64,000 bases of DNA from Lingula anatina (Eukaryota; Animalia; Brachiopoda): the NCBI GenBank assembly GCA_051362555.1, contig CM120648.1:10226587-10290586 (forward strand), read 5' to 3'. This document shows, piece after piece, positions 2,397 to 63,319 of this stretch. Position 1 is the first letter of the stretch, and each line of letters opens with the position of its first letter. Below the pieces are notes generated by a model, which searched no databases, had not been told where the DNA came from, and was given only the letters and a program-made list of their open reading frames with translations. The position numbers and the translations under genes are program-made.

Positions 2397-3444
2397 TTAA
2401 TTGCAAGGGCCCAGGTCATCAATCTTAACCGACCCACTGCGAGCATTCATGCCGTCATAGATCCCTTCCACGCTGTACTTGTAGCTGTTGCCGTTCACAA
2501 GGTCGATCTGCATGTTGGCCTTGTACTCCGTGTCTATGGAGTCGGCGTACATGGTACCTGTGGCATACAGCTTTCGGTTTGGAGGGCACTTGATCGGCCA
2601 TTCCCACGTGCGCTGTTCCGTTGTCGTTGTGGACCTCCCGTATGAGGCACTCGCGGTGACCTTCCAGGTTGAACTGACCTCGACGTCTGCAACCCCTGGG
2701 ATACCCCCGGAGACCGTTGTCTGCAAAGAGTACTCCAAACCTGTGGTAATGCTCCACTGTCGCGTAATGGTGACGGATCGGGAACCCTTCACGGTGTAGG
2801 TCTGTTCCACGGACGATTCATTGGTGATCCTCTGCTGGACGACGGTTTCCGGGACCGAGGCGACAATCTCCGTGTCAAGATTTGGGTAGGTTACGTCCAC
2901 CAATCGTGCCTGCTTAATTGGATGTAGTATGGCGAACCCCAGACTGTCGACGTCCTCGCCCCCGGCGCCGAACATTCCGCAGACGATGCCGGAGCCCACA
3001 TCCGGCCAATAACGGCCGTTTTCATCCAACCAACGTGAGAAGATTCCCCAGTCGCGCCCTTTGTCCGTCTGCAACCAGATGGCGCCGAGACGATGATTCC
3101 CGCCAGAGCTGGTCTCTCCGCTGGCCTGGATGTTGAGCTTGGTCAGCTTCTCGCCGCTGTTCAAGCGAAACTCGCTGGAAGCTCCAGATCGCTTCCCAAC
3201 AAGGTGAGACTTCCCGTCGCTCATCCACATCTCCACTCCACGGATACGCCAATCGTCTTTCCAGGCTTTTAGCCTGGTCATAATGGCGCCGTCGTCCAGC
3301 CTTACGTACGTGAATGGCGTTCCGCCATTTCCGCCAGAGGCCTGAAAAGGAAAGTCAGGTCTCACTACTAATTACAATCCATGAAAATTTCCCTCCCAAA
3401 TCTCCCCCCCCCCCCCTCCAAAAAAAAAAAAAAAAAAAAAAGAA

Positions 3445-3491
<47 letters not shown>

Positions 3492-4084
3492 AATAATATA
3501 AATAATAGTTATAATGATAAATTTCGGTAGCTCTCTCCAATTCCCGCCAATCCCATCAGAGAACTGAAATTATTACTGTGCATGAACCCCTCCCACCCTA
3601 CCACCTGGCCTACCAACTTTATCTTTTGTAGTTCACTCTAAGTTCAGATCTCCAACCACCATAGAGCGTGCTATACACTATTGTGCTGCAAAAATAGGCG
3701 GAAATCTTCAATTGCGGCAGTAACCGGTTTATATTAAATACCACACTTTTTTTTCTTTTTCTTTTTAAGTTTTGTAAGTGAATAGTTTTGTGAAGTGGCA
3801 TGTAGGACCTCATTAAACGAGCACCAATTCTGTACAGTCACTTTCACAGCGAAAGTGCAATGTCGAAAAACGTAATTCCGAATTAATTCATTTTAATTCA
3901 AATATACTGCAATATGTTGCATAAAATCGCGCATAATTAGGGCAAGGACATGTTTTCTTAAATACAATTTTCGCGACGAACCCCGTACCGATCTGTAGTG
4001 CATGCAGTATGGTAAGAATTAACATACCTGATTGGTGGTGAAATACCTCTTGTCAATGCTGCTGAATTCTTTGAGGTGAGGCAT
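2397..4084 (-). CDS. Aerolysin-like pore-forming protein with N-terminal jacalin-type lectin domain (Dln1/natterin-like), copy 1, 333 aa, 2 exons
   Basis: Exon 1 4028..4084 (MPHLKEFSSIDKRYFTTNQ, donor CAG|GTATGT) joins in phase 0 to exon 2 2397..3341 (acceptor ttttcag|GCC). Jacalin motifs GGNGGTPF and DVGSG..CG..GAGGEDVDSLGF; aerolysin Ser/Thr-alternating stem SVTITRQWSITTGLEYSLQTTVSGGIPGV. No signal peptide. Confidence 0.92.
3443..3495. repeat. (AAAT)n microsatellite next to poly-C and poly-A tracts in the aerolysin-1 intron
   Basis: Visible directly. Confidence 0.95.
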
Positions 4085-4183
4085 TCTGGAGTAAAGTGCT
4101 GTGATTCCTCGATCCTGGATGGATTTGGTGTATAACCAGCGGAGACAGCGTGACAGGTGGGAAGATGTGAAGCACGGGCGTTG

Positions 4184-8596: not shown

Positions 8597-8794
8597 CGGT
8601 TGAAGCTCCAAAAAGGGCAAAAGCCGCTATGGTTTCATACATAGTAATTTCATAAACCACACAGTCGACACTTTTGAATGGATAGCAGTCGGTGCCAGGG
8701 CAAATAACACTAATTTGTTTATGCAACATCGTTTGAAATATTTCTTTCACCCGACCGCATCCCGGATCTTTAAAGTCAAAGTTCTATAGAATTA

Positions 8795-10704: not shown

Positions 10705-12060
10705 ATGCGTGGCAACGTGTCTATGGACCAAATCGCAACTGCAGCATTTGACAAAAATGTAGGCAAATGGGCATGAGTATGAATATGAGTAAAATAATAG
10801 CTGAAAAAATAAATAGAAAACCTAAACCCTATACAATAAAGTTATGTATGAATGAATAAAAAGAATTAATCTCAGTGAATATGAATGACAACTACGTGCA
10901 ACTATTATGCATGAAATTGTATGAAATTCGAAGTATGTGGTGAAATAACAAAAAGTTTCCGAATTGTTGCCAGGAAACATGTGCAGGGTTTGTATAATGG
11001 TCAGGTAAAAGGCGTGAGTTGAAGCTTTAAGCTGCTTCATGGGTCTATGGCATTACATGGATGGTTGCACCATTTTTGTTCAGTTAAATACATCACAAGA
11101 ATGCACAAAATGTAATCGTTTGTTGATTTAGGAAGATTTAAACACCGAGTGGGCGACAGGCCTTTTTTAAAAGATTTTCGGTCAACAAACTCACCAAAAG
11201 GTCTTGTTTTTTGATAATAACCCAACCGCTGTTTGCACGGACTGGCAACACAAACGATAGGTGGACGAATATACCTGTAAATTACGCGCATTGAATCATA
11301 AAGATGTTGTGACAAATGACGCGCGGGATTTATTATTCATTGGTACCCGTCGCAGTGCAGTGATTTTTTTTTCACAATTTAAATACGTTACTCTGGACAG
11401 TTTTATAGCGTTGGGGGTATTATAGTAGTCAGAAGCAATATTCTTTTGTGGAAAGGTTCAATATTCTTAATTCTATTAAATTTACAAATGAAAACATGCA
11501 CTTGAAATACGTGGGACGGACCAGGTGTTACTTGACCCCCTCTTGGTCGCAAAAACAAACTATTCTTGATGATTTAAGTTTACCTAGACAGTGGAATGGG
11601 CATGGAAAACTGGTTTTAAACTTTATTAGGGAAAACATGGAGAGTAGGCATAAAGAGATCAAAGTATAAAGAAAATAAACACGCAGACTTTAAAAACATG
11701 CAAATACCCTCACGACAGAGCGTTACGCTTACATTGATAATATGTAATTGTTGAAACTCAATCAAACATTTCCTCAAAGAGTATATATGTTGTTTTGATA
11801 CAGAATTGAGTGTTAACAAGCAGAGTATCTTAACTAGCCATCAAAAGTACTAACATGCAAATACAACGTTTTTAATGTGGCTTTGCTCATTCTGTCAACG
11901 TAGTCTAATTAAAAACAAGGTCACGCCAGACATCAACATCTTCTATAAATTCTACATTTCATACCACAAGATTATAATGTATTTTGTTGTTTACATCTTA
12001 ATTACGGATCTCAAGCCAGTTTAGATTTGTCTCAGTTGAAAAAGTGCATAGACGTGTGTG
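10705..12060. repeat. Duplicated segment Z, copy A (3' flank of aerolysin-like copy 2)
   Basis: Collinear blocks shared with 15545-16868, e.g. accgagtgggcg, ggtgttac..gaccc, tttaagtttacctagacag, cgacagagcgttacgcttaca, catagacgtg. Confidence 0.85.
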
Positions 12061-12286: not shown

Positions 12287-14606
12287 TTAACTGCATGGGC
12301 CCAGGTCATCAATCTTAACTGACCCACTGCGAGCATTCATGCCGTCATAGATCCCCTCCACGCTGTACTTGTAGCTGTTGCCGTTCGCAAGGTCGATCTG
12401 CATGTTAGCCTTGTACTCCGTGTCTATGGAGTCGGCGTACATGGTACCTGTGGCATACAGCTTCCGGTTTGGAGGGCACTTGATCGGCCATTCCCACGTG
12501 CGCTCTTCGGTGTTTGTAGTGGACCTCCCGTATGAGGCACTCGCGGTGACCTTCCAGGTTGAGCTGGCCTCTACGTCTGCAACCTCTGGGATACCTGCGG
12601 AGACCGTTGTCTGCAAAGAGTACTCCAAACCGGTGGTAATGCTCCACTGTCGCGTAATAGTGACGGATCGGGTACCCTTCACGGTGTAGGTCTGTTCTAC
12701 GGACGATTCATTTGTGATCCTCTGGTGGACAACGGTGTCTGGGACCGTAGCGACAATCTCCATGTCCAGATTCGGGTAAGTCACGTCCACAAGGCGTGCC
12801 TGCTTAATTGGATGCAATATGGCAAACCCCAGACAGTCGACGTCCTCGCCCCCGGCGCCGAACATTCCGCAGACGATGCCGGAGCCCACGTCTGGCCAGT
12901 AACGGCCGTCCTCATCCAACCAGCGAGAGAAGATTCCCCAGTCGCGCCCTTTGTCCGTCTGCAACCAGATGGCACCGAGACGATGATTCCCGCCTGAGCT
13001 GGTCTCTCCGCTGGCCTGGATGTTAAGCTTGGTCAGCTTCTCGCCGGTGTTCAAGCGGAATTCGCTGGAAGATCCAGATCGCTTTCCAACAAGGTGAGAC
13101 TTCCCATCGCTCATCCACATCTCCACTCCACGGATACGCCAATCGTCTTTCCAGGCTTTTAGCTTGGTCATGATGGCGCCATCGTCCAGCCTTACGTACG
13201 TGAACGGCGTTCCCCCATTTCCACCAGAGGCCTGAAAAAGTAAGTAAGGGTTCAGTTCTTAAAACAAACTAATTTCATTTTTGGTACTTCACTTCCGGTG
13301 CAGCCCTTAGCGACCGACCACGACTGAGCATTTTAAACACCAACGACATCACTACACATAACAATGAGTGGTGATCCGCACTTTAGGGCCGTAGCCTCCG
13401 GGGGGGGGGGGGGGGGGGGGCAGGGGATTTGAGGTGTAAAAAAAAAAATAATCGCAATTTCTGACTTCTGATTGAGCAATAAATAACAGTTAAAATTCAC
13501 CAGAATGCTGTATTATACATACAGATTTTAAAAATTTTCCACATCGTGGGAGGGGGACACCCCCACCCTTCCCCATCGGGGGCTTCGCCCCCTCGTGTCC
13601 GCTTACTGCCCCCCCTGGCATTTTGCTCAGGCTACGGCCCTGCACTTGCACCAGTAAGGTCAACAACCTGTTGATAACCCTGCCTTCACCATTATCGAGC
13701 CCCTGGAATGGGCACAATATGCAGAAAATAAATTCATTTGTAGGCCCCAGAGAGATACGCTCCTCTTGAAGTTGTTTTGTTTTAGGTCTTACCTTTCTAT
13801 TATCATAAATGGCTCTCATTTTTTACTTAATTGTCAACTATTTTTTACTTAGACCTTAGGATTATCCCGCCAATTTTTTTTTTACTAAATATAAGCAATT
13901 TGCCCTTCTTGCAAATCATTGTTCGTTCCTCTCCTGCACTAAAATTCGATGTTTTCTACAATGCCTAATAAAACAATTTAGTTCTGAAAGACTTCCTACT
14001 TATTTAGACTTTATTCTATCTTCCTAAACATTTAAATTAAAGAGGAAATATAAGCTTTTGTTTTATCGTTTAAAGTGTCTGAATTGGGATAATAAAGTAG
14101 CTATGTAGGGTATGTAAACACAGAAAACATGAGATAATTTCAAATGCATACTGCATATATTTAATGGTCTTGTTTTAACAGACTTACGGTAACTCAATAC
14201 CGAAAACCAGAAAAACTCATATTGCCCGTTTAGTTCTCGTGCCCAATGCAGAAGCATCTCCACTTTTCGTAAACTTAAGCTTTTCAGCAGAAGGGGCTAG
14301 AAATTCTATTTTTGCAACAGTTTTTGACTAGAAAACCTTTAGATTTGTGGATTGTAACCGTGCTTTCTTTTTTCAAAGTGAAAATTGTGCAGTGTGAAAA
14401 AAAAAGCGCAGTGCCTTGGCTAAATTGCCGTTTCATAATAGCTACAAATTATGCAAGGAATAAATACACAGTGGCATTTTTCTTAAAGACCAATTTTTGC
14501 GAGACGCACCGATAATTAAAATACATAGAGTGTGGCAGTGATTACATACCTGATTAGAAGTAAAGTATCTCTTGTCAATGTTACTGAATTCTCTCAAGTG
14601 AGGCAT
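12287..14606 (-). CDS. Aerolysin-like pore-forming protein with jacalin-type lectin domain, copy 2, 333 aa, 2 exons
   Basis: Exon 1 14550..14606 (MPHLREFSNIDKRYFTSNQ, CAG|GTATGT); exon 2 12287..13231 (945 nt, same length as copy 1). About 20 aa differences from copy 1 by manual count. Confidence 0.92.
13384..13642. mobile_element. Short TIR element in the aerolysin-2 intron
   Basis: AGGGCCGTAGCC ... GGCTACGGCCCT inverted ends, flanked by CACTT on both sides. Confidence 0.65.
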
Positions 14607-14757: not shown

Positions 14758-15544
14758 CTGCGTGGGTTGGCGTTGGCGTTTTGACTGTTGTGTCTTTGGC
14801 GTATCTACTCTGTTGTATTGAGCAAAAAATATTCTGATCACCATGTTTTCAACCTCTTTTTGTTTATATTTCAGGTCACATGTTAAATAGGACATCAAAG
14901 TGTGTGTGTGTGTGCGCGCAGAAGCCTTAATGCAATGAATCCGTCATCCGATAATAAATAAATAAATAAATAAAAAATAAATATGGATCCGCTTGTTAAT
15001 AATTATACAAAAAATTACTTACAATAGAGTTTTTTTAGGGGAAAATACCGTGCGTCTCATAGAAAATACCCCTATATTGTCCTAATACCGTGCATACTGA
15101 TTCAGTTACTTGCCCCCTCCTCTGCTTGCCCCCAGGCACGTCCATGAAGAGTGACGGAAGAGGTTGGGTAACTCTGTTCTATCATTTCTATTAGTTTTGC
15201 CCCATGCAGTGTTATTTTGGTCTCTTTGGACTCGGAATTGGTCACGCCGCAGGTGATTAAACTTAGATCTGAAATATTGCATTAAAATGCATATACTCAT
15301 AAAATATTTATTCAACACAATTTTCCATATCAAATTTGGTCAATTTCGTACTAATCTTGGTTAGCAGAAGCCCCGTTAAATAAATAAAATGTCCCTTACA
15401 ATTTGAGGTTGAAACTTATTGAGGAAGCGAATGTGGTAAACACATTTAGCGATGAAGACCAGGCAACATCATGTCAAATTTTGTCGAAATGAACATCCCA
15501 GATGAATGTTTATCAAATGCAAGTGAACGTATAAGACGTTTACG

Positions 15545-16868
15545 TTGCAACGTGTCCATAATGAACCAAATCGAGACTGCAGCATTTGACAAAATTAGAA
15601 GATAAATGAAATGATATGAGTTAAATGAATATAAAATATTAAAACTTAATACAATAAATAAATATATGAAAAAAAAATTAACCCCAACGCCTGTGAATTA
15701 CAACAGTAAAGTTTTTCATGCAAGCAGTGCGTTTTAAATATAAAATAAGAAATAAATAAAATGCGAGGTTTGTGTTGAAATAACGAGAGGTCTCTGAATA
15801 GTTGCCAGGAAAACATGTGCAATATTTGTATTGTGAAAAGGTAATAGGCGTGACTTGTAGTTTTATGCTGCAACATGGTCTATGACATTACAAGGATAGT
15901 TGCACTGCAAGACATACAGTGTAACCCAGAAACACCCACGGTCAGATTTGTTTAATAAAATAAATAAGGCATAGTATGTAGTCGTTTGTTGATTTTAGCA
16001 AGGAGTTTCACTCCTTGATTTTAGAAAGATTCAACTACCGAGTGGGCGGCCGGCTCTTTTTAATTTCTTTTAAGATGTCCAGTCAACAAGTTTATTTAAA
16101 GGTTTTATTTATTTATAATGATCCAAGCACTGTTTGTACTGATTGAAAACGATTTAGAAGGACAGGTGGGTGAATTTTTCTGTTAATAACGTGCATGGAT
16201 TCATAATAATGATGTGAAATGAAGCGCGGACTTATTTTTCATAAGGCCTCTGTGGGCAGTGCAATGTACAATTGAATACACAATTCTAGGTATCTTTATA
16301 ACGTAGGTGGTAGTATACAAAGCAGAAACATTTTTCTTTTGTGGAAAGGTTCAAAACTCTTCATATTATGACATATACAAATTAAAAACATGCACTGAAA
16401 ATAAATGCGTGGAACGGGCCAGGTGTTACTCTGACCCCGCCCACAAGCTAAGCGTTCTTTATGGTTTAAGTTTACCTAGACAGATGCGTGGGTATGGATA
16501 AACACATGACCGGTTTTTAAACTTTATTACGGAACGCATGGAGAGTGGACACAAAGAGATCAACTATTAAAAAAAATAAATAAACATACCTTCCCGACAG
16601 AGCGTTACGCTTACAATCATAATTTGCAATTGATGAAACTCATCCAAACGTATATCAAAGTGTATGTATGTTACTTTGATCTTGTCACAAACTTAAGCGC
16701 TTACAAACAAGGCATCTTGACAGGCCACCAAAAGTATTGACATAAAATGTTTTAAATGTTTCTTTTTTCATCTTTTCAACGTGGTTTTATAAACAAGTTG
16801 TTTACATTTTAGTGATGCATCTTAAACAAACTTATATTTTTCTCAATTGAAGAAGTACATAGACGTGC
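15545..16868. repeat. Duplicated segment Z, copy B (orphan aerolysin-type 3' flank with no coding exon)
   Basis: Collinear with 10705-12060; homology stops about 230 bp short of where the aerolysin stop codon would be. Confidence 0.8.
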
Positions 16869-18718: not shown

Positions 18719-21700
18719 CTAATAGGTTGACAGTCGAAAGATAATGACGTCTCCAGGATTCGGGATATAGCCATCAACTCCTAGAATTCAAGAAGAAAAT
18801 AGCTTAATTGACTCGTTTGCTACGACACGAGTCGTATGCACCACATCTTGCAAGGTAAATTAATTTTGTCATTCATCCATTTATACCTGACTTTTATATC
18901 TATATTTTAAAATTAAATAAAAGCAACTACATGTGTGAATCAGACGCCAATAAAACATAAAATATAAAATAGCTAGAGGTTTTTAAAATATATTATTCTA
19001 AATGATTGACAAAATATTAAAAACGTATGGATAGAAGCATAGTAAAGGCATTATTAAATCAATCAATCAAATTTATTGACTATGCAAACAAATAAACGAA
19101 GCAATTTCAAATAAGCTAGATAAGATTAATTAAGGAATAAAGTTATAATTGAACCAAAAATTATAACATACTATGAATTGATCACAAACTAGTGCGGGTG
19201 CAAATATTTATAAACAAATAGCATACATACCCACTTCCAGTGGGGTGTCCGGTGCCTTAAGAATTTGCCAATATGTTCTCTTCTCTGGATCCTCCGATAT
19301 GCCGTTAATCTCGGTGATGTAGTGACCAAGGGAGGTGTCCTTGGCCTTGAAACTGAAAACAAGACCGACGAGATTAATTATTTACCAGTGTGATCGTTGA
19401 TCGCAACCTTTTTTTCGTCGTAATTTTTAAAAGATGCATTATTTGATATCATTGACAGAGTTATAAACTTATATCAATTTAATTGACAATTTTTTGACAT
19501 GTATAAAGTCCAGATTTATTACGCACTGTGCAAGTTAAAGTACATTTCTGTAAAACGAAAGGTTTAAAAGCAAAAGGTTTAAAACCCAAATGAAGGAATT
19601 TGTTTTTGTTATTTCGATATTTAATTAGCCTTGGAAAAAGTGAACGTAATAGAAATATTGGAAAATCAAGCAGCCTACCTGAAATCTGATACACTGTCCT
19701 GAAGAATACCCATGGAATCGTACAAGGATGATCCTACTGGAACGGTCACATAGTAACTCTGGTTTTCACTGTGTCCTTCTATATTAGCAACTACCTGGAT
19801 GGTGAATGTGAGTTGTGTGGGAGTTGTGGTCGTAGTTGGCGGAGCTTGAGTAGTAGTGAGCTTCTGACAGATATTGATGTCTCCCAAATCAGCGTATGAT
19901 TTGCCAGCAAGGGCGGGGAGAACCTGATTGGCAGCTGTCACTCCTCCAAACGATCCATCTGGCTCTGTTAAATTCAAGAGTGCAAGTAAGCTGTCCATTA
20001 GCTACAATTATAATCTTTACTTATGATCTAACATAATGCCTCAAAATATAAATAAATTCATAAATAGAATAAAATAAAAAATATAAAATAAATTGTCACA
20101 TCTCAGTAAAATGTTTTATAAAATACATATTTTTACCCCTTATGCATCAATGAAATAAGGAAAGTCTTTACTTACGTTGATAGGCCAAGAGGGTAAGTTG
20201 AGCTTTCTTCTTGATCAGTTTTCGACTGTTTTCATTATCTGCGTACAGAGCCTACAATAGCAAAAAATATCAATATACATTTACATATCATTACGTACAT
20301 GTGACGTCACAGCAACAGCAGAAGCAGTGGACTGACTCCGTGTCCGTGGTGTCTAAGTAAAGGCTTTTTTTGCAATAAAATTATCTTGTCGTTTAATAGT
20401 ATCAAAACAACCGCCTGGTTCGATATTTTAAAAAGTTAAAAACTATTACGACCTCGACCTTTGCACTGTATTGCCTTACAGGTAGTTCTATACCTGAACA
20501 GCCAGTCCGGTAGTGTATTGGTTGCCAAATGAACCATCCGGTTTGATATTAGACAGAATATACTGGACCCCAGTATTGATGGCAGGTATGACGTCAGATG
20601 CCCCAGTCCGGTCTCTCACACAACACAATGCAATCACTGATATTGCAGCTTCATCTGGAAACAGAGACAGACAACGGAAGTGAATCGTTTGCCAAAGAGA
20701 ATTAAAAAACGAAAGTGAAAGTGTATGGAAAAAGGTCAAGACGGTGGCTGAATTTAAACATGTAAATCAATTGGTTAAGTAACCAAACAACCATAAGAAC
20801 AACAACAAAAAAGAATAAAAGAAAAATGACTATCACAACAAATGTTAAAAAGAAAAAAATATGATAAAAATATGACATTACCAACTCCGAAAGTATAATT
20901 CCCCGCTCCATCCAGAAGACGTTTGTAGTACGTCTCGTTTATAGCACCAGAGTTGCACAGAGCTAGCACAGCCCAGCTGTAGGCGAAATTGTGGTTAAAG
21001 TAATACTTGGGAAAGTTGTTCATTTGGTTCATGAGAAGTTCTATAAGGTTATGGTCATAGAAATTTGCCGGGTTTTGACAGGTAGACACAAGGCCGTTGA
21101 TGAACTGGCCAAGTTTTCCGCCATACCAGGCGGCAGTGTCCAATCCTGGGTAGCTGCAAGAAAAAATATTTATCATTCTTATTATTCATTTATTTATTTA
21201 TTAGCTAATCAATTAATTAATCACTTAAAATAATTCTTATTATTACTAATTAATTATTGATTAACGCAGCATTATTTGTTATTAGACAATAAACTAAATA
21301 TTTAGCCAATAAATTGACTAAGCAAACCCAAGTAAATCCCTCCATAACTTTTTGCATAATTTTGCTAACAAACACACAAATAAGTAACTAATAATTAACA
21401 AAAAATTAATAAATGGTCATCACCAAAATATTATCAGTTTTCAGCCCTTTTCAGATCTAGCCTGAAATGTCATCAAAACCCAACGATATATCTTTTTGAC
21501 TTACTAGTAGACTCAGTAACTGGCCGACAAATAAACAAACGGAGGTAAAACACTTCCTGGACGAAGCTTACTACCCAGTACAAACTGTTACTGGTCAGAT
21601 ATCAACGTACTTGCTAATAGCTGCCAGGAGAACCAAATTCATTTCTTTGACGCTGGCGACGGTGTTTGGCTTATCGGGATTATACCAGCCACTTCCTTTA

Positions 21701-22572
21701 GCCAACTGAAGCGCCGTGATGGCCTCCGCCTCACTTCGCATTCCCCAACCCCAATCTTCATTTCGGTTCTTCAGCAGCCATCTTATTCCTTTCTCTCTCA
21801 CTTTGAATTTGTAAATATTGTCGAATTTATCTTCATGTAAATGACGAGATCATAGTAAATTGTAACAATAATTGAGTGAAAGTTTGAGTCTTGGAGTTTA
21901 TCAGTTATTGGAAAACGCATTGCCTCCTTATGACATTGCTGGTTGGCCGGGGGGGGGGGGGGTGTCGTGTTTTTTTCCTTACTCCTTTATGTCAGTTTTA
22001 ACATCCATATAACTTATCTCACCCGAAACATGCTGTTATGTTCCATGTGTGATATGTTATATGGATGATTATTGCGTTGAACAGAAATGACGTGGTCTTC
22101 AGTGGACGCAGGTGGCAAAAAGCTATAGATCAACAGTTAATTACGCTTTTCATTCGAACTTTAAAATATTCGATGCACTTGTTGTTAAATACCGCGGTGA
22201 TTAAAACACAAATGCTAATAAGACTCTTCAATGATATTTGAAAATACATAATTTGGATAGCCTAAACAATCAGAACTAACTACATCCTGTTGTAAAATAG
22301 GTCGGTTTTATATATAATTAAAGTAAAAAAGCGAAATGTAAATCATACATTTATTACCTCGACTTATGTAAAAATGTTATCTATGGTAAATCCTCACTTG
22401 AAAACAAAGCCATTGCACGCAAATATTTTATATAAGTCAGATATCAATATCCACGGTTTGCAGTAGTGCAACTAATGAAAATGACTTATGAATATCACAA
22501 TATCACACTTTACTTACCACCTAGGCAATGCACGGATACCAAGGTGCATAAAACTGCATACAAGATCTTCAT
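18719..22572 (-). CDS. Secreted cobalamin-binding protein, transcobalamin/intrinsic factor/haptocorrin family, copy 1 (~407 aa, 8 exons)
   Basis: Exons 22518..22572, 21611..21800, 20882..21153, 20494..20654, 20176..20251, 19679..19964, 19231..19352, 18719..18780; all GT-AG, intron phases 1,2,1,0,1,2,1, total 1224 nt. Signal peptide MKILYAVLCTLVSVHCLG. Family motifs GKLGQF, DGSFGNQYTTGLAVQAL, AANQVLPALAGKSY; beta-domain motifs GSSLYD, GHYITEINGI, YWQIL, GVDGYIP. Confidence 0.9.
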
Positions 22573-31086: not shown

Positions 31087-31118
<32 letters not shown>

Positions 31119-32297: not shown

Positions 32298-32340
<43 letters not shown>

Positions 32341-42332: not shown

Positions 42333-42385
<53 letters not shown>

Positions 42386-45544: not shown

Positions 45545-47400
45545 ATGTATTTATTTGCAACTTAAAAACTTAAATTAAAAAAGGATTTTACAATGAAAAC
45601 AAATAGACGTGAGATGCACAATCTTGAAATATACTTGTAAGTGTTAAAATGATTTGATACACATTAAAAGTTCGTAAAAACCTCAGTTCTTAAAATTTGA
45701 TAAAGCCCATGGGATAAAAGTATTTGTCGATCATACAGTCCTCAGTTTTAGCACAGTGTAATTATAAACCCGCGCAAAGTGTAGAAACTTTCATTTACCT
45801 TTGGTAGCAAATGATGGATTTTGTGTCCTTCAGAGTACATGTTATGCAATAATGTTTTAGATAGTTCATCTCTTCTACAAGCAAGAGTGATAAGTTTACA
45901 TGTTTCAAGTGACCCATCATAGGGCAGCTCTGGGAATATAATCTTACATGCTCTAATCAGGATCGATTCAATTTTATCAACTTGTTGTTGTGTGAGACCT
46001 GGGTGCCACACCTGACATGCATATTCTAATGTGGGTCTGATTACTCATGTGTAAAAGCTTACAAGTTCATTGGTTGAAATACCCGCTCTTTTCAGAAGCT
46101 TAAGATTGTGTAGCCTTTTACTTGCTTTTTTACAAATATCACAGATGTGACCTTCCCAGCTCAAATCACTACTGATCCTAACCCCTAAGAAGACAGCAGA
46201 CCCACTCTCTCAATCCTTTGATTATCTACCAATAAGAGTGTAGTTTTGTGTCCTTTTTGGGAGAAATCAAATATGATCTCTTTGGTCTTGGTAGTATTTA
46301 TTGTTAGTTTATTAGCATGGGACCAGAGAGGAAGTTCTGTTGTTGCATCAGTGAAATTGTCTTGTATTTTGGTATTCCCGTAGCTTAGAATTGTGGTATC
46401 ATCTACATATTTGAATGTGTCACATTTGGTGCTCAGATCGTTAATCATAATGACAAATAAAACTGGACCATGTTTTGTGCCTTGTGGTACACCAGCATTA
46501 ATGCATTGCCAGTCTGATTTCACACTGCCCATTTTCACTATTTGTTTCCTCCAGTTATAAAGCTGTAAATCCAGTTTGAAATAATTCCTAGGATACCTAA
46601 TTCAGACCGTTTTTGATAAAGCAGGGTGTGGTCTATTCTATCGAATGCTTTGGTATAATCAACCAAAAGCATTCTGGCATATTGTCCTAGAGTGTCAGTC
46701 TGCCTTGCAATAAGGTCAAAAGCTTCGATCAGTGCGTATGTCGTACAGCTCCCCTTCATGCTGCCGAACTGGACAATATTATTGGTCACAATGTCCCAAA
46801 TCCATTTAACTATAACACCCTCCAATAACTTAGGGAGCACTGGAGTTAGAGATATGGGTGTAATGTTTGTCTCTATGGTCTTTGGGGGAATGCACTTAGG
46901 TAGTGGTGACACATATGCATGTTTCCAGAGTGGTCGGACACATCCTTCACGAACTGATGAGTTGCATATAGCACATACTGGGGCAGCTAGGTACTCTGCT
47001 AGGTCATGTAGGATACAGTTGGGAATTTCGTCGGGACCTGTGGACTTGTGTACGTTTACCTGGAGCAAGGCTTTTTCGACATCTTGTTTTGTGATGATAT
47101 ATGTGGCTGGTACAGGGTCTGCTGCTTCCACGTGTTTCGGTTCAAGTGGCACAAAGCCATTCGTGACAGATTGAAAGAAAGCGTTTATTTTCTGGGCTAA
47201 TAAGCTGAAATCACCATTGCACTCGCTGTTAGCCAAGCCCAGTAAGGAATTATTTTGTGTTGTTTGCCCTGTAAGCAACTTAATGTCTTTCCACCACTGC
47301 CTTGATGTACCGTCAGACAGGACGTTCAGTTTCCCTTCATAGAAGCTTTTCCGAGTTTTGGTAAGTCTGTTTACTCTGTTTCTGTCATGTTCTGTAGAGG
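45545..47400 (-). mobile_element. 5'-truncated, frameshifted CR1/L2-group LINE (reverse transcriptase)
   Basis: KSTGPDEIP, PISLTPVLPKLLE, LVDYTKAFDRIDH, GVPQGTKHGPVLF, KYVDDT and WHPGLT spread across three broken ORFs. Confidence 0.92.
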
Positions 47401-47693
47401 TTAGTCTGATTTCCCATCCAAGCACGTTGTCTCTTCTTAATTAAGTTCCTAAACTGATCATTGAATCATGGCTTTTCATTTATACCGTAATCGTTCATTA
47501 AATAGCATTACAATATCATTAAATATGATTAAAATATCTGCACTGATTTCAACTATTTTTTACTGTGAACGCTCATGGACTATTGTGGTCACACCCATTC
47601 TTTCTGTTATCGTTCAAAAGGCCAATATATTAGTACACAACATGTTGTTTTGTAACTTAAAATACACCCCTTATCAATCATTTTGTACACAAT

Positions 47694-48687
47694 TTAGTTT
47701 CCGTCTGTTGCCTCGACAGACACGCTGCTTTGATCAGACGGAGATTCAATACTATGGCCACTCACCAAGCTTCTTCCGCTACCACCGAAAATATGACTGT
47801 AGTTTTTGTCCTTTCTTAGAACTTTCATGCAATCATCATATTTAAGTTCTTTAAAGATTTTAGAGAGTTTAACAGCATCTCCATTATACACGATATTGAA
47901 TATCGTGTCTATAGTTTCCTCTTTCGTTGACCTGTCATCAGTGCATTGCTTGAGAACATGTCCCAAGCCATTCTTTTCAGCCAACTCGATATATCTGTCA
48001 TCTTGAGCCAACTTTTCTTGCAACTCCTTTATTATTGTACCCTCCAATGTTGTTACTTTGGTGTCAAGCCTGGGGTTCGATTCAGATAGTGGCTGTAAAA
48101 AAGTTGAAATGGTGAAGATTGGTCATTATAATACGTAGTGAAGGTTTCAACACGTTGCATCATTACGTTGTAGTGACGCAGAGTTTAATGTATCAAATAC
48201 GATAAATTCCCTGATGAAGTCTGTCAGGAGACGAAATATTTGCTGGTTAATCTCGCATAATATTTTGCAGTTACTGACAACCGAAACTTAACCTGTTTTT
48301 TTTATTTTTAATTTAAAAATAATATATAGCAACTACGACTGTTTAACATGACAAATGCCATTTCCATTCCAGGTGATGCTTTCATAAGAATGGATTAAAT
48401 AAGGTTTATATTATAATAATGTACTTTTCACGATGCAAAGATCCATATCCATATAGAGATTTCATGAAGAGGAAGAAAGAAAATCCACTCTAAACTCTCT
48501 ACCCTCATATACTTTCAGTGGATATTAAATAAACGTTACCTCGACAACACCGCTGTAAAGGAGAGAAACTATGACGGGCTGAACTGCTTTGTCTTTTTCG
48601 TGTTGTATTGATGCAGTAAATTCAATTTTGTTCGCACTGTCAGGAAGACTGGTAAACGTGAAGTTTGCCTCACAAATAGTGATAAGC
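47694..48687 (-). pseudogene. Remnant paralog of the receptor 3' end: truncated UPA exon + death-domain exon
   Basis: Exons ~48540..48687 (ICEANFTFT...IQHEKDK...VE|GT) and 47694..48092 (DDRYIELAEKNGL...KELKYDDC) align to 55615..55791 and 54585..54980. No ZU5 or TM exons were found upstream. Confidence 0.7.
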
Positions 48688-49067
48688 CTGAGAAGGCAAT
48701 AGTTTCTGATGTACATGTACAGTTAATTCGTGGTATGTACGCATTCGGTAATAGGCCTACAGATAAGGATTCAACCGTTAAAATGGTAGGAAAGGTTTTA
48801 TTGAATTGTATAAAAGGTGGTTAAATATTCAATATGTAAAACAAAGAAAATAGCAGATGCATTGGCTATGAGAATCTGGTAGATGGTTGTAATTTGAAAG
48901 TGTGTGAAGTACAGATAATGCGTGGTACGTACGCATTCTGCGACGCAGACAGGCACGCAACAGCTCATACAATGTATCAAGGCCACGTCACATTGCATTT
49001 TGTGGCTGTGTACACATTTGGACGCTTACAATCGGAAATTTAGCATAATAACAACATTGAAATTTAC

Positions 49068-49251
49068 CTCTGTTACATTTTTTACAAAGCTCATCGATAT
49101 CGTCGGCAAGGCAATGCAATTTCTTGGAGGCTTCTTCAGCGCTTTGAATGAGCTCGCGATGGCCATTTTCCAACTCTTTAGCCAACTCCAAAGGGTCATC
49201 AAGCTCCATTTCTACATCAAACAATTCTTTATCACTACCTAGCTTGGCAGG
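49068..49251 (-). pseudogene. Isolated exon with an apolipoprotein-L-like helical motif
   Basis: ttttag|CCT...AGAG|GTAAAT; PAKLGSDKELFDVEMELDDPLELAKELENGHRELIQSAEEASKKLHCLADDIDELCKKCNR. Its phase-1 donor is incompatible with the next exon. Confidence 0.45.
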
Positions 49252-52951: not shown

Positions 52952-53006
<55 letters not shown>

Positions 53007-54584: not shown

Positions 54585-57500
54585 TTATTCGGGCTGATTT
54601 TGATCCGTTGTCCCTTCAAGCACATTGCTGTTATCGTCAGTCGGTGTTCCAATACTTTTTCCACTTGCCGAACTTTTCCCCTGTTCAATACAATAATGAC
54701 TGAAGTTTCTATCCTCTTCTATAGCCTTTGTGCAGTCATCATATTGAAGAGCTTTGAATTTTTCAAAGAGTTTGAAAACATCTCCTCCATACAAAACAAG
54801 GAGAATTTTTTCTATAGTTTCTTTTGTAGTGGCACCGGGGGTAAGTTGTCCCCATTCCATACTGCCTCTTAACTCGAGATGCCTGTCATTAATACTCAGT
54901 AGCGTGCATAGTTTTTCAATTGTTGTTTTTTCCAATGTTGGCGGTTTCTTTTCCAGTGTGGAGTAGCGTTCGTGAGATGACTGTTAGGATAAAAATATTA
55001 AAAAGATTAAAAGGTGAAAATTACAGCGGCGGTTGCAACACAATCCGTCACCAGGGCCCAGCTTCACTGGATAATGCTATCCTATGGATAACACTATCCA
55101 TTGAATACAAATGTTTTTCACTGGACAGTAATTCTGAAAATAGCAGCCATTTTTATCCTTTGGAAAGAATTTTTAGAAACCAAAATATATATCTAGGGTT
55201 TACCCATATGATACCTAACCAGAGGAAAACAATATCATCTAAAGTGTTGATGAAACCGGGCCCAAGTTTAAAACATTCTATACTTATAAACGGTTTAAAG
55301 TAAAAAATTCCAGTGCATTCCGATCTGTTAAATCATAAGCACGCACAAAACAGACATGTCTTGATCAATCACAAAAATGCACATATTAACCCTGGGAAAA
55401 CAAGTAATCATAACACTGACAATAGGTAGCCCTGTGTATTTATACAAAACAGTGGTCTCTAACAAACATTAAATGAAAAATTATAAGGTTGGGATTACCA
55501 TAACAGAAATGAAAGATCCAGCCCCTTTTTCCAAGGCGATGGGAGAAAAGTGTCCCCCCCCCCCACACACACACACACACACAAACCTCTAGTGGACTTT
55601 AAATCGTACGCTACCTCATCACTGTCAGCAGAGAGTGAAACATTTCCCAACTCAATTTTGGGTTTGTCTTTTTCGTGTTCTATTGTAACAAAAAATTCTA
55701 CCACGTCCGCATTGTGGTTGGTAAACGTAAAGTCCGCCTTGCAAATATCAAAACTTCTGCCGTTGTCGAAACATCTTTCCGTTAGTATTTTCTATAAAGA
55801 AAATAATTAATCACAAACCAAATGCATGATAAAGAGGAAGTCATTCATTAATTATAAGCTTATTCTGACTTTAAAATCATGGTTCTATTAATTCCTCGTG
55901 GAACTGAAACGGATATGAAGGTTTTGATATATATACAATAGTCATTGAGGCAAAAAAAAAAACTGTTAAAGGTGAGATGTTAAGCCATACATGCATTTGA
56001 TATGAAATATCATAAAACCGAAAAGGTTTGACGTTTCATTTTAATCAGCCTATATTAGCGACTAAAATTCTCACCTGAAAAATGGTTACGTTAGCTTTCA
56101 TCCGAGTCAATACACTTTTGTTACTTCCAATTGCCATTTGTACATGTTTTTTGTAACTTTTATAAGGTAAATAAAAAATCCAACCTGTTCTTGAGAATGT
56201 TGCATCGTAGGTATGTCCATTTTGATGATGATGGTCTTCATGTCAAATGTACCGTGGTAGTCCGTATTTAACAAACATATAACGTGCTCATTCTCCCACT
56301 TCTCCCTTTTAGTATCCTAGGTGATTGAGGAAAAATCCAGTTCCAGTAACAGCCGACTGGTAAGACTACAGAGTACAGTATATTAGATTTTCAAGATATG
56401 TGCCACTTTTCTACTCTAGCTGTCTCTAAATTTTAGCAAAATTACCTGTCAGCTCCATACGTTTGACACAAAATGCGGTGATAGAATGATTCACAGCTTT
56501 TTGATTATATCATAAAAAGTATTTAACTAGTGTAGCATACGTCATTTGCTTTAACACAGTAATACTTACTTTGAATCTTTCTGTGGGAACTAAGCACACT
56601 TGGATGTTGTTACCAAGTCTTTGCAGTGATTTTGGTCCAAATACTGCCGCCGTCAAACTGATTCTACTCCTGCTTCCAAATGCAGCCTGCATTTCTTGCT
56701 CACATTCACTCTGGCCACCACTAAAATGTTCCAAAGCGATATTTTTCATGTCTCCATTAATCACATAAAACAAATTGCTTTCTTCCCATTTATCCTGTTC
56801 GTACAAGCTGGTATCCGTCTCCCGAAAAATAGAGTAGCCGTCTGTCGGAAATGAAATAACTGCAGCACGATTTAACTTTAGACCATGTGGTCCATATCTA
56901 AAATGATATCCCTGTCCTGGGCCTCCTTTTACGTAAAGATAGACTAAGTACAAATCATCAGTTGGCATTGAGTCTGGTGGTATGTATAAACTGACCAGGC
57001 CTACGTTGATCTGAGCGCCTTCTTCTTTTGACACAATGCATGCACCAAACGACCGGTCATCACTCTTGTAGACTACTTTTCGGAAGTCGATTGGTAACCA
57101 ACCATTTTCTCTAGAAACTTCAGCCTGTTCACATACATCTAGAATGTGTTTGCATAATTGAGGGTAAGCTAATCGGCTTTTGGGATCCTGCGCCTCTCTT
57201 CGAAGATCTGACGTTTTCAAAAGTTTGTGGTCGTTTTCGTGTGTTAAACTAAAGATAGATACAAATTGTTGAAATGTATAGGAGGTATTAAAACGTCAAC
57301 AAAATATTAAGAAACTTTTTAAAGTGGACTTGCCAAAAACTATACATTCACAGCATTTCAATGAACCAGGTTGGGAAATGTTAATGTTGTTTAAATAACT
57401 CACCACTGAAAAAAAGATATTTGGCAAATCCCAAGACCATATGGATAGCAATGCAATTGATTTAATTTTCAAGTTCCAATTGTTAATAGGGCATAACGAT

Positions 57501-59875
57501 AGCTACGAAAGAAAAAAAAAACAGTTAAGTAGGCTTGAGATATCCAAAGGACAGGGTTCTTTTAAACGGTCTGTCTAACTGTAAAAACCTGTTTACCTAT
57601 TTTATTGATGTTGTTGTAAAATTACTAACGTTATGCCCTTATTAGAATTTTATAATTCATGGGCCTTCAATTGGGCTATTTTAATAGCTGACAGTTCTTA
57701 AAGCCATACATGTAGCATACCTGTTGTTATCATCAGTGAACGAAGCAGAACCGGTGTTGTATCCTACAGCAGAATCGGAATCAGCCTCGCTTCGACTGTC
57801 TATACTTGAAAAAACCGGCCATGTTTCCATAAACTGCTTTTCCTTGGTTATTGCTTGGAAAAAATAATGCTCATTAGCTGGGACCACCTGGGCATTTGAA
57901 AGTAGTGTGGTGCGTTCTGTTTGACCGATGAACATATCTGTTGTGTCATTTGGTGTACTGTGATCTTGATTATTGTCATGGATTCGACACCCGACTTCCG
58001 GCAAAGTATCAAGCAAATCATCCCCCGAAGTATCTGGCAAGGTGTCCGGCAAGGTATTCAACAAAGTATACCCTTTTTTATACCGTTTTGCTGGAATATA
58101 ATAATGTAAACGTGAAAATGTTACGTTTGTTGTATTATTACAAACCGGAATACGCTGATGTCCCCAAAATGTTGGTACATACATGACCCCACTTGGTCAT
58201 TTCAGTCAGTAAAATTACTTGGTCGCTTGAGGGTAAATACTCAGGTATGCATGTACATGTATTTGTAAGAATATTTCATAATGGTAGCTCCGCGTCTCAA
58301 TTCTGTGAACTCATGCGAATCCTTATATGGCTAAGTAGTCTTATATCGGATTTCCAATGCACCTGGCATATCTGGCAACGGGGAGCAATGTTAACACAAG
58401 CAGGAATGGGTAATATTCCGTGCCGCGCTCCCTTGTTGATTAATTTTATTGCTTTTTTTATTTTCAACGTTTTTCATAAGACCTTTGAAGATTCATTTCA
58501 GTAGAGAGCAACCGTTCCCAGTATCTAGCTGTAGTGATCAGTTCAGCAGGTGAGATATTACGCCACTTCAGGTTTACTTTAAGATTGGCTTTGACGCGAT
58601 TCCTTGGCCTCTGTTTCTCTTCAAGCTACAGTGATTTGTGGGAGCAAAGAGATTTGAAAAACGCGTATCTATCAATAAATAAACATTTTCCACGCATCAC
58701 GGTGACTTAACGGTCAGGAACGCGTGCTTAGAATCGATATGTAGAGTGAAACCAAGAGCGAAATTCCGTTAACTTGAAAAATGACTACAAATAGTGGTAG
58801 ACGTTCGAAGTCGAATTACACCAATTTTTGTCCCTCACATGTATTGTACAAATGATATACAATGAAAAAGGCCATCAATATTGAAGGTACATGTAAATGC
58901 CCTGAAAAAGTCTAAAATACGAAAAATCATGATGCACTTGTATCATCCTTTTGATGCAAAAGTGTATAAAAAATTGTTTAAAACTGTATGCCACTGAACT
59001 GTATATAATATTACGCTACACCGTGCCTCCAGTACCACAATCCCGAGATGACCTTGAATATTATCAGGCATTTTAAATCGCAAATTAAGCTGTTTATACC
59101 ATTTCATATTGCATTTAATCATCCACAACAAACATCTTTTCAAAAGCGGCCTCAAATTGATCCTTACCTTTACAGCGTACAACCACAGCATACAAGACAG
59201 CAAAGAAAAGAATCGCTACAAAGAGAGCAATGTACCCAACGTCGCTTGCAAGAGCTAAAATAAAAAACACAACGTCTTTTATAGTGCGATATTGAACTCC
59301 AAATTATTACAAACAACATATATTGTTTAGAAAATGATTCAGACACGCATAGGTTAGCGTACTTTATCGAATTAACAAAATATTTTGTCAAAAACATAAG
59401 AAATACTGTGTATTGTATACAATTAAGCTAACTTTGAATATACCATTACATTATTTCACTTGAATTATAATAGCTATAATGTAATATGTTTATTCACAAA
59501 ACAGCATCATGAAACCACCAATTCACCTTTTACGTCCGAAAACTTTGCCAATCTGGGTAATAGCATACACGGGTCATAATTGTCAAGTCTTAAACCAAAG
59601 TAGAAGTTATCTTCATCCCTGCGTATGTAAATACAAACGTTTTATTAATTCAGTAAACTGCAATATAAAATGTTCTTATTTAAAAGTGTCCTGGACACCA
59701 GCACATTCACAATGGATTATATATATATATATATATATAGAAAGACAAGAAAACTGTTATCTCCATGTTGATTAATATAAGGCCCTACAGCCGTGTTCTT
59801 GTCTTTCTGTATCAGATACCCATGGTCCGTCATCATGGGTAGAGCACGCTTCCAAAGTGAATCGATTACATTTTC

Positions 59876-59911
<36 letters not shown>

Positions 59912-61135
59912 TCTTGCTCAAAATGGCTGGAACAAGGAAATTCTGGGATGCATTTCGCCCTGTTTCTTTCATTATAATTGTTATTACCAATATTATACCG
60001 TTTATATTGTTTTTAAGCAAATTAAAATATGTGAAGCTGGGGGATTAGCAAAGTTAAAGAGAAACAAATAATGCATATCTAAGAAAAGCATTAATTTATT
60101 TAGGGTTTTTGCCTCATGCCCTCAAAAATGAGTATTATTTACACAAAAGTTACAGGTAAAAAAATTAGCATAAATTTGCAATGTGATTGACAATATATAT
60201 GAAATTTGGGGAAATTGTCATGAAAACCCTTCACACTTCATTATTAATCTCAGTAGCGGGGATACTCCACTGCGAGTTTGGATTATGACCACCAGACGGC
60301 GTGGCATACTGTGATCTAGAGTTACAGCTCTTTATAGAGGATTTCTGGTCCATTCAACTTGAATGGCGTCTCGAAGATGATCTAAATTTGCAGCGGGAGG
60401 GTTTCTCCTTTAAATTACACTACCAAGTTCGTCCCACTTGTGCACAATTGGGTATGCATTTGGGCTGCTTTCTAGCTGTGGCATCAGCTGAATGTTGTTT
60501 TGGCGGATATAGTTGTCAATTAAGCGGGTTGTATGGGGAGTTGCATGATTATGGTGCAATCTTCAATTGTGTCTGTATATTCCTTTAGAGAACGGCTACA
60601 GGTTCTGTTGAAAAAAATGTCCCTGTATCTGGCAGTGTTAATGTTTTCATCAGGAGGAAGCAATGGGCATATGCCGTTGCTGCAAATGGCACCCAAACAT
60701 GTACGGAACCATCTCTTCCAGATATTGTTTCTTGGATATTTTCAGTCAAGGAGTCTACGCACTCTCATTCTTCAATCTGTTGGATACAGTAGAAAACGGG
60801 ACTCATCTGCAAACACCACGTAGTTCCAATGTTGGACCGTAAGGTTACGGTTCTGCCGCGCCCGCTGCAGCCTGCCTGCGGTTTACCGTCTGGCGAGACT
60901 ATCGAGCCAAACGTCGGGCCTGTAGCTTTGGTCCGCTCTCTTCTTGCCAGCTCGATGATGACACAATCACTTCTGGTTTTTGTACTTCGCGGTCATTAGT
61001 TCACATCTAGTACATGTTACCTAATGTCGTGCCAATTGGTTTAATGACTCTTTTTTCGTACCAAGTGTTGCGTTTTAGAAATACGAATAAAATATCCCAT
61101 TAAGTTATTTTCGACGTGTACCAACCATTTTTGGC

Positions 61136-61197
<62 letters not shown>

Positions 61198-63319
61198 CAT
61201 TGGTCAAAAAGATTGTCCCACACCCATGTGCATTTATTTATAAATGACCACATCACAGGTGAAAATTGTTATAAATAGTGATTTTCATTCCGGATACCAC
61301 AACTGACATGGTACAGAAAATACAAACTAGCGGTTAAGATATCCATATTTAATACCTTTTATGCATATTTATCACATGTACCCCCTCAAATGGGACGTGG
61401 CACGAATTGTTGCAGAAACCCAAGGTTGTGAGGCTGCAGAGACCATCTTTGAGTCCTGCTAATAAAGCTACTGAGCACCCGTGGCACGAATTGTTGTGTG
61501 CAATCTACAGGAAAACCAAACTCCAAATAGTCCGGACCAATTCCTTCAAGCTCTTTAGGAAACATGGTACAATATCCCACAAAACAGAATTGGTACCCTT
61601 GTTGAAGGCAGCGGCGCCGTCTACAGGAGATAATTACTGTATGCGGTAAACCCACACGCTAATACACAAATGATCTCTAACAAGCACACCCTAATGCTAG
61701 ATGTGCGTAAATTTTGTGACATTTGGTGGTTTTTATTTTTAATTCAATGAACATTTCTTTACATCTGTGGAAATGACAGTGGAACATCGGATGCGAGGGG
61801 GTACATGTGATAAATGTGAATAAATGGTATGAAATATGGATATCTTCACCGCTAGTCTGTATTTTCTGTATCACTAATCATGTAAGTTACAGTGTCTGGA
61901 ATGAAAATCACCATTCATAACAACTTACCCCTGAGATGTGATCATTTATAAATAATAGCACATGAAACTGGGGGTGGGACTTTTTGACCAATGTTGCATA
62001 TCTACAGTGTATCTCTCTATATATAAGACGTGTAATAGTAATTACAACCGCCAAACCTCGATTTAACTCCTATTTCAAAATTGATATATCCACATATAAG
62101 GCCTTCACCACATCATATAAATAAAAACCCCTGAAGACGCAATGAAACCGGTCGGGGCAAAATAACTGCTGTTCTTTATTTCTTTTATCATATATAATAA
62201 TAATAATAAAAAAATTATTTTAAGTCAACATCCATTTAAAATGTTCAGTAGACTTTACATAAAATATCATAAATAATAATACATAAAATATCATAAATAA
62301 AATCTAGGTAAAACAGCCATTATTCCATACAATTAAATGCAATTAATACAAGATTTATAAAACCAATTAAGAGTTAATCAAAATATTTCCTAAAAAGGTA
62401 TGTTTTGATTTCTTTTTTTAAATGTTTGGTAGACTGAATTGCTCGGATTTCCAGCGGTAATAGATTCCATTCCTTTGGACCTGCAGCTTTAAAAGATATA
62501 TCACCGTAGGTTTTTAATCGCATTTTTACTGGGTTGAGTAGCAATTGGTCTACAGACCGCAGATTTCGCATTGGAACATAGTGACTGACTAATTCATTGA
62601 TGTAGATTGGTGCCAATCCATAAAAAGCATCGTGAGTAAAAACTAAAAATTTGAATAAAATTCTGCCTTGTATAGAGGTAGCCAGTGTAAACTTTTTAAA
62701 CTGGGGAGATGTGTATGCTTGTGGATGTCCGAGTTAATAATCTGGCCGAAATATTTTGAATGCGCTGCAGTCTGGCAATTTGTTTCTTTGGACAACCGTA
62801 TAAAATGAAGTTGCAGTAATCTAATCGAGATGTAACTAAACAATTTATGACTGTGGCTGCAGCAGAGTCGGACAACTGATTGCGAATTGCACTTATGTTC
62901 CTAATGTTAAAAACCGCTGACCTGCATACACTGGCAATATGTTTGTTCATACAAAGCGATCCATCTAAAAATACACCAAGATTTTTTGCATAGGTTGTTG
63001 GCTTAATAATGCTTGATCCAATTTTGAGCTGAATTTGTTGTGCTATCATACGATTATGTGGCTGACTTATTACCAAAAGTTCAGACTTTCCATCGTTAAT
63101 TTTCAACTTATTACTAATCAGCCACCTGCGAAGATCGTCAATACATTTAGACAATATATCAATAGATATATAAATATATTACCCAGCAAAACAGTCACCA
63201 CATATTGTGTCTCTGGTTAAATTACAAGGCTCTTTGGTTTCTCTGTACAAGTCAAGACAGTCGGTGCAATTTCGCCATGACATTTCGTCGAAACTGAAGT
63301 ATCGTTGGAACTCGCACAC
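54585..63319 (-). CDS. Single-pass receptor: TNFR cysteine-rich domain - stalk - TM - ZU5 (HF|S) - UPA - death domain (>=689 aa; 5' end unresolved)
   Basis: Exons 63183..63319 (VCEFQRYFSFDEMSWRNCTDCLDLYRETKEPCNLTRDTICGDCFAG), 59527..59618, 59168..59254 (TM YIALFVAILFFAVLYAVVV then RCK), 57721..58090, 56570..57248 (ZU5: VSLYIPP, GPHGL, LEHFS; UPA start AAVFGP), 56185..56316, 55615..55791, 54585..54980 (death-fold). All GT-AG, phases 2,1,1,2,0,0,0 match, 2070 nt without internal stop. Confidence 0.8.
59910..61140 (-). mobile_element. Decayed Tc1 transposon within (TA)n, inside a receptor intron
   Basis: WNYVVFADESRFLLYPTD*RMRVRR, GSVHV, PPAANLDHLRDAIQVEW, MPRRL...SRY*; degenerate TIRs abut TA tracts. 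Confidence 0.85.
61195..61998. mobile_element. Tc1-like MITE with ~190-bp TIRs
   Basis: AACATTGGTCAAAAAG...ATCACATGTACCCCCTC / GAGGGGGTACATGTGAT...TTTTTGACCAATGTT; adjacent to TA. Confidence 0.8.
62128..62157 (+). ncRNA. Minimal type-I hammerhead-ribozyme-like motif (Penelope-type), helix II degenerate
   Basis: CCC-CTGAAGA-cgcaat-GAAA-CCGG-TC-GGG: catalytic boxes, palindromic helix III (ACCGGT) and CCC/GGG helix I. Confidence 0.45.
62340..63140 (-). mobile_element. L2-type LINE 3' fragment in a receptor intron
   Basis: KLKINDGKSELL, KNLGVFLD, SRLDYCN, LQRIQN, LHWLP, RNLRS, AGPKEWNLLP. Confidence 0.88.

Follow-up and report, generated by a model that had tools for sequence, protein, structure and literature searches.

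Do genes that lie side by side on one strand work together, or do they merely share an address? The question is raised by a 64,000-nt stretch of the genome of the brachiopod Lingula anatina (hereafter the window, in whose positions all coordinates are given), where we recognised three families of host genes: jacalin-aerolysins, which are natterin-like candidate pore-forming lectins (two intact copies), vitamin B12 binders of the transcobalamin family (three intact copies) and a receptor with a death fold (one gene and a partial copy). An earlier note on this DNA had read them as an innate-immune island that combines sensing, killing and B12 nutritional immunity or B12 harvesting. We consider it probable that the three families, each multiplied by head-to-tail duplication, are chance neighbours and not one defence system.

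The arrangement as such had been described correctly. All recognised host genes lie on the minus strand (Table 1), most of them are tandemly duplicated, the copies being collinear head-to-tail duplicates, and no intervening housekeeping gene was found in Pfam scans of the open stretches of both strands. These scans covered all 127 plus-strand stretches of at least 58 aa, which yielded no host-gene family, and 113 of the 179 minus-strand stretches of at least 55 aa, which yielded no further gene; the minus-strand stretches left out had been scanned earlier or lie in or beside known exons, and scans of this kind could overlook small exons of an unrecognised gene. The single credible plus-strand match was a DEAD-type fragment within an inverted-repeat element with 93-bp arms. 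Because tandem copies inherit their strand, the co-orientation is mostly explained by the duplications: P=0.016 would apply to seven copies on one strand only under independence, three families give P=0.25, and four families, when an orphan exon discussed below is counted, give P=0.125.

The sequences around the two arrays show a shared history, not a shared function. Upstream of each aerolysin gene lies a copy of a 1.2-kb flank that we call F, and inside both copies lies element E, a 35-bp core that follows a T-rich tract and is surrounded by 110-130 bp of weaker likeness. The remaining copies of element E follow the B12-binder genes, one behind each at a distance of 0.7-1.2 kb; the element thus occurs once per unit in both arrays and is absent elsewhere in the window. 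On the simplest reading, which we infer from this distribution, the edge of the B12-binder array was copied along when the aerolysin gene duplicated, and the adjacency of the arrays would therefore predate that duplication. Element E might serve as a control element, represent an old repeat or have arisen through unequal crossing-over; its sequence is reminiscent of a splice acceptor, but the copies keep no common frame and hardly any reads fall on them. Synonymous divergence (dS) is alike in both arrays, at 0.25 between aerolysins A and B and 0.24-0.27 among the B12 binders, which points to similar duplication ages. Both arrays are under purifying selection (ratio of non-synonymous to synonymous divergence, dN/dS, 0.11 for the aerolysins and 0.26-0.35 for the B12 binders), and neither shows signs of diversifying rapidly. 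Promoter capture, considered on account of matches upstream of aerolysin A and B12-binder gene 3, was rejected: one match is a small inverted-repeat insertion in the gene 3 promoter, and the other matches are absent upstream of B12-binder genes 1 and 2.

Co-expression had been proposed as a check on the island, and its outcome was divided: the aerolysin and B12-binder families co-vary in all four runs available for them, but the receptor stays near zero in all four of its own, the tissues being unlabelled and the reads not specific to single copies. The data came from five of nine raw-read RNA runs with the same species label (X1, X2, X4, X7 and X9; 6-30% of each). The region 12200-32190 was covered by X1, X4, X7 and X9 (three studies, unlabelled tissues, 94% cut-off, mates summed) and the region 44600-64000 by X1, X4, X7 and X2 (92% cut-off). 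Depth in the two aerolysin exon-2 bins was 0 and 3 in X1 (the value of 3 comes from a repeat at 13.5 kb), 8 and 6 in X4, 119 and 227 in X7, and 303 and 920 in X9; in the B12-binder bins 19537-20203 and 30209-30875 it was 0 and 0.1, 0.5 and 2, 105 and 59, and 123 and 81 in the same order of runs. About half of the reads in 12200-32190 are less than 95% identical to the window, many of them from other paralogues or a diverged population, and loose read ends, compared by eye, match an A-type first exon and to gene-3-type or more distant B12 binders. The bin that holds exon 1 of aerolysin B has a depth near 0 in all four runs. Over 44600-64000 the reads pile up on repeats only: the ZU5-like and death-fold bins of the receptor have zero depth in X7 and do not exceed 0.46 in X1, X2 and X4, and none of these four runs contains a receptor splice joint. 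Across X1, X4 and X7, the runs common to both regions, the receptor therefore shows no co-expression of comparable level.

Several observations weigh against reading the families as chance neighbours. The depths of the aerolysin and B12-binder families rank alike in four of four runs from unlabelled tissues, a parallel that favours a shared tissue; element E, which follows all three B12-binder genes and precedes both aerolysins, might regulate the two arrays jointly; domains of immune type occur in two of the three families; and the silence of the receptor is weak evidence, since receptors are often expressed at low levels and the runs bear no challenge labels. The alternative that best survives takes up the first two of these points and leaves the receptor aside: the aerolysin and B12-binder arrays would form a co-regulated module of a secretory surface, such as gut or mucus, with shared enhancers. 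The common rank order, the sharing of element E and flank F and the similar duplication ages all agree with it, but with four runs from three studies and unlabelled tissues any two tissue-specific genes would co-vary, many of the reads derive from paralogues elsewhere or from a diverged population and are not pinned to the window copies, aerolysin B, which adjoins the B12 binders, is the copy whose first exon is almost without depth, and element E may stem from unequal crossing-over. We regard such a module as unlikely, and the same holds for the division of labour that it would entail, one family killing microbes and the other capturing the B12 that they hold or release.

Far less probable is the full island, in which the receptor senses, the lectin-toxin and an apolipoprotein L (ApoL) kill, the B12 binders starve microbes and selection has kept the linkage. 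The co-orientation of the recognised host genes, the want of a housekeeping gene between them and the presence of TNFR-type and death-fold domains agree with it; however, co-orientation by family has P=0.25, the receptor is silent in X7, where the other two families are abundant, no ApoL match was found in Pfam, the protein collection, the Atlas or the PDB, and the haptocorrin precedent for B12 starvation is weak. On these grounds the island of the earlier note is not supported, although, if it were true, it would be an animal locus that couples microbial killing to vitamin capture. The further suggestion of a physical association, in which the glycosylated B12 binders would act as partners or carriers for the lectin-toxin, found no support and is very improbable. 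In its favour, the binders have 2-4 N-glycan sequons, the toxin retains the jacalin loops that align with its fish counterparts, and reads of both families occur in the same runs; against it, most secreted proteins have sequons, and only the binders have a signal-like start, so that toxin and binders would share no classical secretory route.

If the families are chance neighbours, each would act on its own. The leaderless jacalin-aerolysins would bind glycans through their lectin domain and oligomerise into pores, by analogy with their fish relatives. In the secreted proteins of the transcobalamin family, B12 would be clamped between the alpha and beta domains; uptake and transport are the established default function of this family, and by analogy they are the most likely role of the Lingula proteins, plausibly in a tissue that also makes the lectin-toxins. 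The receptor would sit in the membrane at low levels under separate regulation, cleave itself at a His-Phe-Ser motif and signal, in the manner of UNC5CL and PIDD1, through its UPA-death-domain fragment.

The label of pore-forming lectins is borne out, as far as family membership goes, by matches in Pfam and the PDB. Jacalin and ETX/MTX2 domains score above the Pfam cut-off in both copies, the former N-terminal and the latter C-terminal, and exon 2 aligns over its full length with the natterin-like 5ZU4 (E 2e-42), which we take to be lamprey LIP, and with 4ZNO (E 2e-40). Each gene consists of a 19-codon exon 1 and one long exon 2, encoding 333 aa in total, and the two proteins are 94.6% identical; neither has a signal-peptide-like start (N-terminal hydropathy -0.4 and -0.7). 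Exon 2 of A encodes a protein sequence 99.4% identical to Lingula anatina XP_013404334, and that of B one 99.1% identical to XP_013404328; these matches mark the window as Lingula DNA, though not letter for letter that of the two records, and RefSeq already names such genes "aerolysin-like protein". Of the nine such proteins on record for Lingula, four lie on a scaffold of 488 kb and five on one of 112 kb, and together with the window copies they form one clade (support 100/99); the array extends beyond the window, which cuts it. The fish jacalin-aerolysins (zebrafish Dln1/Aep1, 4ZNO/5DI0, and 5ZU4) have the same order of jacalin and ETX/MTX2 over their whole length, and the GG loop, the G-x-D-x-D segment and the (A/G)GIP motif of fish natterin-like proteins align with the Lingula copies. 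In contrast to the fish proteins, the Lingula copies belong to a separate invertebrate group with patchy relatives in starfish, bivalves and a red alga. The protein of the starfish Patiria (57%) groups with Lingula and not with the bivalves (99/98, in an unrooted tree that carries a long-branch warning), and the red alga protein is 44% identical to the Lingula lectin-toxin. Judged by sequence, this patchiness would reflect either gene transfer or repeated loss.

The assignment of the B12 binders to their family, likewise based on sequence, was confirmed by matches to PF01122 and DUF4430 in the Pfam scan and by the exon structure. All three genes have open frames with AG/GT splice sites and no internal stop, their pairwise identity is 82-88%, their N-termini are signal-peptide-like (hydropathy 2.3), and RNA joints show several introns of copies 1 and 2. 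In exon 2 of gene 1 (21800-21815) the CAG acceptor of genes 2 and 3 is gone, and the remaining in-frame AAG, a weak and putative acceptor, would make the exon four codons shorter. Loose read ends at 30849-30882 (X4, X7 and X9; compared by eye) differ from the B12 binders of the window, which suggests at least one further, more diverged paralogue outside it. With transcobalamin, haptocorrin and intrinsic factor the Lingula copies share the signal-like start, the alpha domain, the Thr/Pro linker and the beta domain; unlike in the vertebrate B12 binders, the triplication is specific to Lingula. Single exons match the three vertebrate proteins alike: in a treeless comparison the best match is TCN1 for exon 6 and GIF for exon 7, and within the family it is TCN2 for exon 4. 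PMC4350170 places the Tcn1/Gif/Tcn2 split in early vertebrates. Because this split is dated within the vertebrates, the Lingula proteins would not be haptocorrin orthologues, and the role proposed for haptocorrin is therefore not transferable to them by orthology. The proposal that haptocorrin withholds B12 from microbes does exist, as had been stated, but as a precedent it is weak, apo-haptocorrin having inhibited 1 of 34 strains according to PMC3146852. The antimicrobial role of haptocorrin is disputed, and an invertebrate expansion of B12 carriers that tracks lectin transcripts would make it testable outside mammals.

The receptor is the most unusual part of the window. Five exons, from the transmembrane (TM) exon to the death fold, splice with matching phases into an open chain of 568 aa with a single TM segment. 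The earlier note had named only a death receptor, to which we add ZU5-like, His-Phe-Ser and UPA-like parts; the label of a death-fold receptor itself holds, as judged by predicted structure. The model of the last exon has six helices (pLDDT 62, from a two-row alignment), and in a VIA search of 48,161 chains the top five matches are all death domains (Z 9.3-8.0, root-mean-square deviation (rmsd) 2.5-4.7, 80-90 residues aligned), death-fold entries making up 48 of the 50 rows listed. The best match is Pelle/Tube (Z 9.3, rmsd 3.6, 87 aligned), followed by a Myddosome chain, MyD88, p105 and Fas/FADD (Z 8.4-8.0), all of these Z values lying below 13, the level asked for helical bundles. Foldseek gave no match at E<=0.001 for this exon, its highest-probability row again being Pelle/Tube, and the alignment gave no PDB sequence match to a death domain. 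The ZU5-like exon reaches 0.95 and 0.94 with ZU5 clusters of the Atlas, at a low recognition score; its ten best named Atlas hits all belong to one family or clan, and a lower row (0.88) is a ZU5+UPA cluster. The same exon has no match in Pfam or among PDB sequences, a word-indexed search gave no longer relative, a full HMMER search gave two weak matches to very long unnamed or hypothetical proteins, and the fold search was uninformative owing to a poor single-sequence model (pLDDT 40). The lone His-Phe-Ser of the chain is residue 326, about 110 aa past the ZU5-like start.

The order of ZU5-like, beta-rich and death-fold parts is shared with UNC5CL, UNC5 and PIDD1, and in the receptor a TM segment precedes it. 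PIDD1 cuts itself at His-Phe-Ser (PMC9162469), the motif that stands at the end of the ZU5-like part of the receptor; CARD8 has an equivalent SFS at the ZU5 C-terminus (PMC3210808); and UNC5CL keeps a TM segment with ZU5, UPA and death domains and self-cleaves (PMC10084454). By analogy, the tail of the receptor most likely works as UNC5CL or PIDD1 do, although it is too diverged from the UNC5/PIDD module to be matched by Pfam ZU5, UPA or Death. The N-terminal parts differ: UNC5 has an ectodomain of immunoglobulin and thrombospondin domains, UNC5CL has none, PIDD1 is cytosolic with leucine-rich repeats, and the receptor has an upstream exon with a TNFR-type cysteine-rich domain (CRD).

The CRD exon matches PF00020 with E 1e-3 and 20 bits against a cut-off of 29.4; it has no TNFR match in the PDB, and no exon was seen 5' of it within the window. 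Its donor is of phase 2 and the best acceptor of the TM exon of phase 1, a mismatch, but a weaker AAG acceptor 10 nt further on would join the two exons in frame. None of 16 candidates for a bridging exon was credible, and no reads across the CRD-TM splice were found in X1, X2, X4 and X7. Tentatively, and at somewhat less than even chances, we read 63319-54585 as a TNF-receptor-family protein with a self-cleaving ZU5-UPA-death-domain tail, its CRD joined to the membrane segment by a putative splice. It is a comparably tentative step to suppose that such a receptor would hold a pre-cut effector fragment, like PIDD1 or NLRP1, and set it free once a ligand binds. If true, TNF-receptor sensing would be joined to self-cleavage of the PIDD/UNC5CL type, a different way to switch on a death receptor. 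Coral TNF receptors have reportedly been annotated with ZU5. The order TNFR-ZU5-UPA-death was not found in literature on ZU5 together with TNFR (listings, with passages of PMC8195603, PMC4979521, PMC11463336 and two preprints). The p75NTR-like "PITA" receptors reported for Lingula in a preprint (bioRxiv 10.1101/2021.12.26.474206) resemble the proposed receptor in CRD, single TM segment and death fold; compared with them, the present receptor has about 400 residues, the ZU5- and UPA-like parts included, between TM segment and death fold, and the preprint makes no mention of ZU5 or UNC5.

In the partial second copy of the receptor the death-fold exon is 40% identical to that of copy 1, the UPA-like exon has a stop 11 aa past the acceptor equivalent to that of copy 1, and tblastn found no remnant of ZU5, TM segment or CRD. 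The orphan exon close by had been taken for an ApoL-like relic, which no tool confirmed. Its codon use is coding-like, only 3 of 117 non-coding open stretches scoring as high, and it has no RNA reads of its own. Searches of Pfam, the protein collection, the Atlas and the PDB with this 61-aa piece, a weak query, gave no ApoL match, the PDB matches being generic helical or coiled-coil chains only. A short helical motif at its end resembles the segment before the hydrophobic hairpin of ApoL. Neither a PF05461 match nor such a hairpin was found for the orphan exon, a motif scan having detected no hydrophobic hairpin exon after it. We take this exon and the partial receptor copy to be likely remains of one duplication-prone region.

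Table 1. Features of the 64,000-nt window of Lingula anatina, in window positions
Feature	Position	Strand	Structure or basis
Jacalin-aerolysin (natterin-like) gene A, intact	2397..4084	minus	exons 4084-4028, 3341-2397; Pfam and protein matches
Jacalin-aerolysin gene B, intact	12287..14606	minus	exons 14606-14550, 13231-12287; Pfam and protein matches
Transcobalamin-family gene 1	18719..22572	minus	start 22572; 8 exons, 407 aa, 3 N-glycan sequons, hydrophobic N-terminus
Transcobalamin-family gene 2	28412..32559	minus	start 32559; 8 exons, 415 aa, 2 sequons
Transcobalamin-family gene 3	38449..43049	minus	start 43049; 8 exons, 416 aa, 4 sequons
Flank F upstream of aerolysin A	10708..11919		66% alike to 15543-16797; element E at 10756
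Flank F upstream of aerolysin B	15543..16797		element E at 15594
Element E, 35-bp non-coding core	10756, 15594, 18039, 27375, 37240	minus	sequence likeness; last three downstream of transcobalamin-family genes
TNFR-type CRD exon, putatively of the receptor	63183..63319	minus	PF00020 below cut-off
Receptor, TM exon	59168..59254	minus	sole hydrophobic segment of chain, mean hydropathy 2.9
Receptor, juxtamembrane linker exon	57721..58090	minus	splice-phase assembly
Receptor, ZU5-like exon ending His-Phe-Ser, then UPA-like start	56570..57248	minus	Atlas lead and motif
Receptor, beta-rich exon, UPA-like by position only	55615..55791	minus	no library match
Receptor, last exon, death fold	54585..54980	minus	predicted structure and fold search
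Partial second receptor copy	47694..48705	minus	UPA-like exon ~48705-48540, open death-fold exon 48092-47694
Orphan coding-like helical exon, 184 nt ("ApoL-like relic")	49068..49251	minus	splice sites, codon use
Broken LINE (long interspersed nuclear element) reverse-transcriptase relic	45748..47440	minus	RVT_1 in two frames

Transposon relics sit between and within the genes of the window. The element with the DEAD-type helicase fragment (E 6e-4, plus strand), 620 bp long at 32941-33558 and bounded by its 93-bp inverted arms, is likely a non-autonomous DNA transposon, and related pieces flank an insertion at 8726-9765. Two minus-strand relics presumably fill the intron that follows the CRD exon, one of a Tc1/mariner-like transposase (61000-60250) and one LINE-like (63178-62374), both identified by eye from motifs; neither gave a Pfam hit. 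Small inverted-repeat elements and a repeat occupy 50284-50845, 43189-43423, 6632-6860 and 63660-64000, and in the right-hand 20 kb most RNA reads fall at the repeats at 50.3-50.8 kb and 63.7-64 kb.

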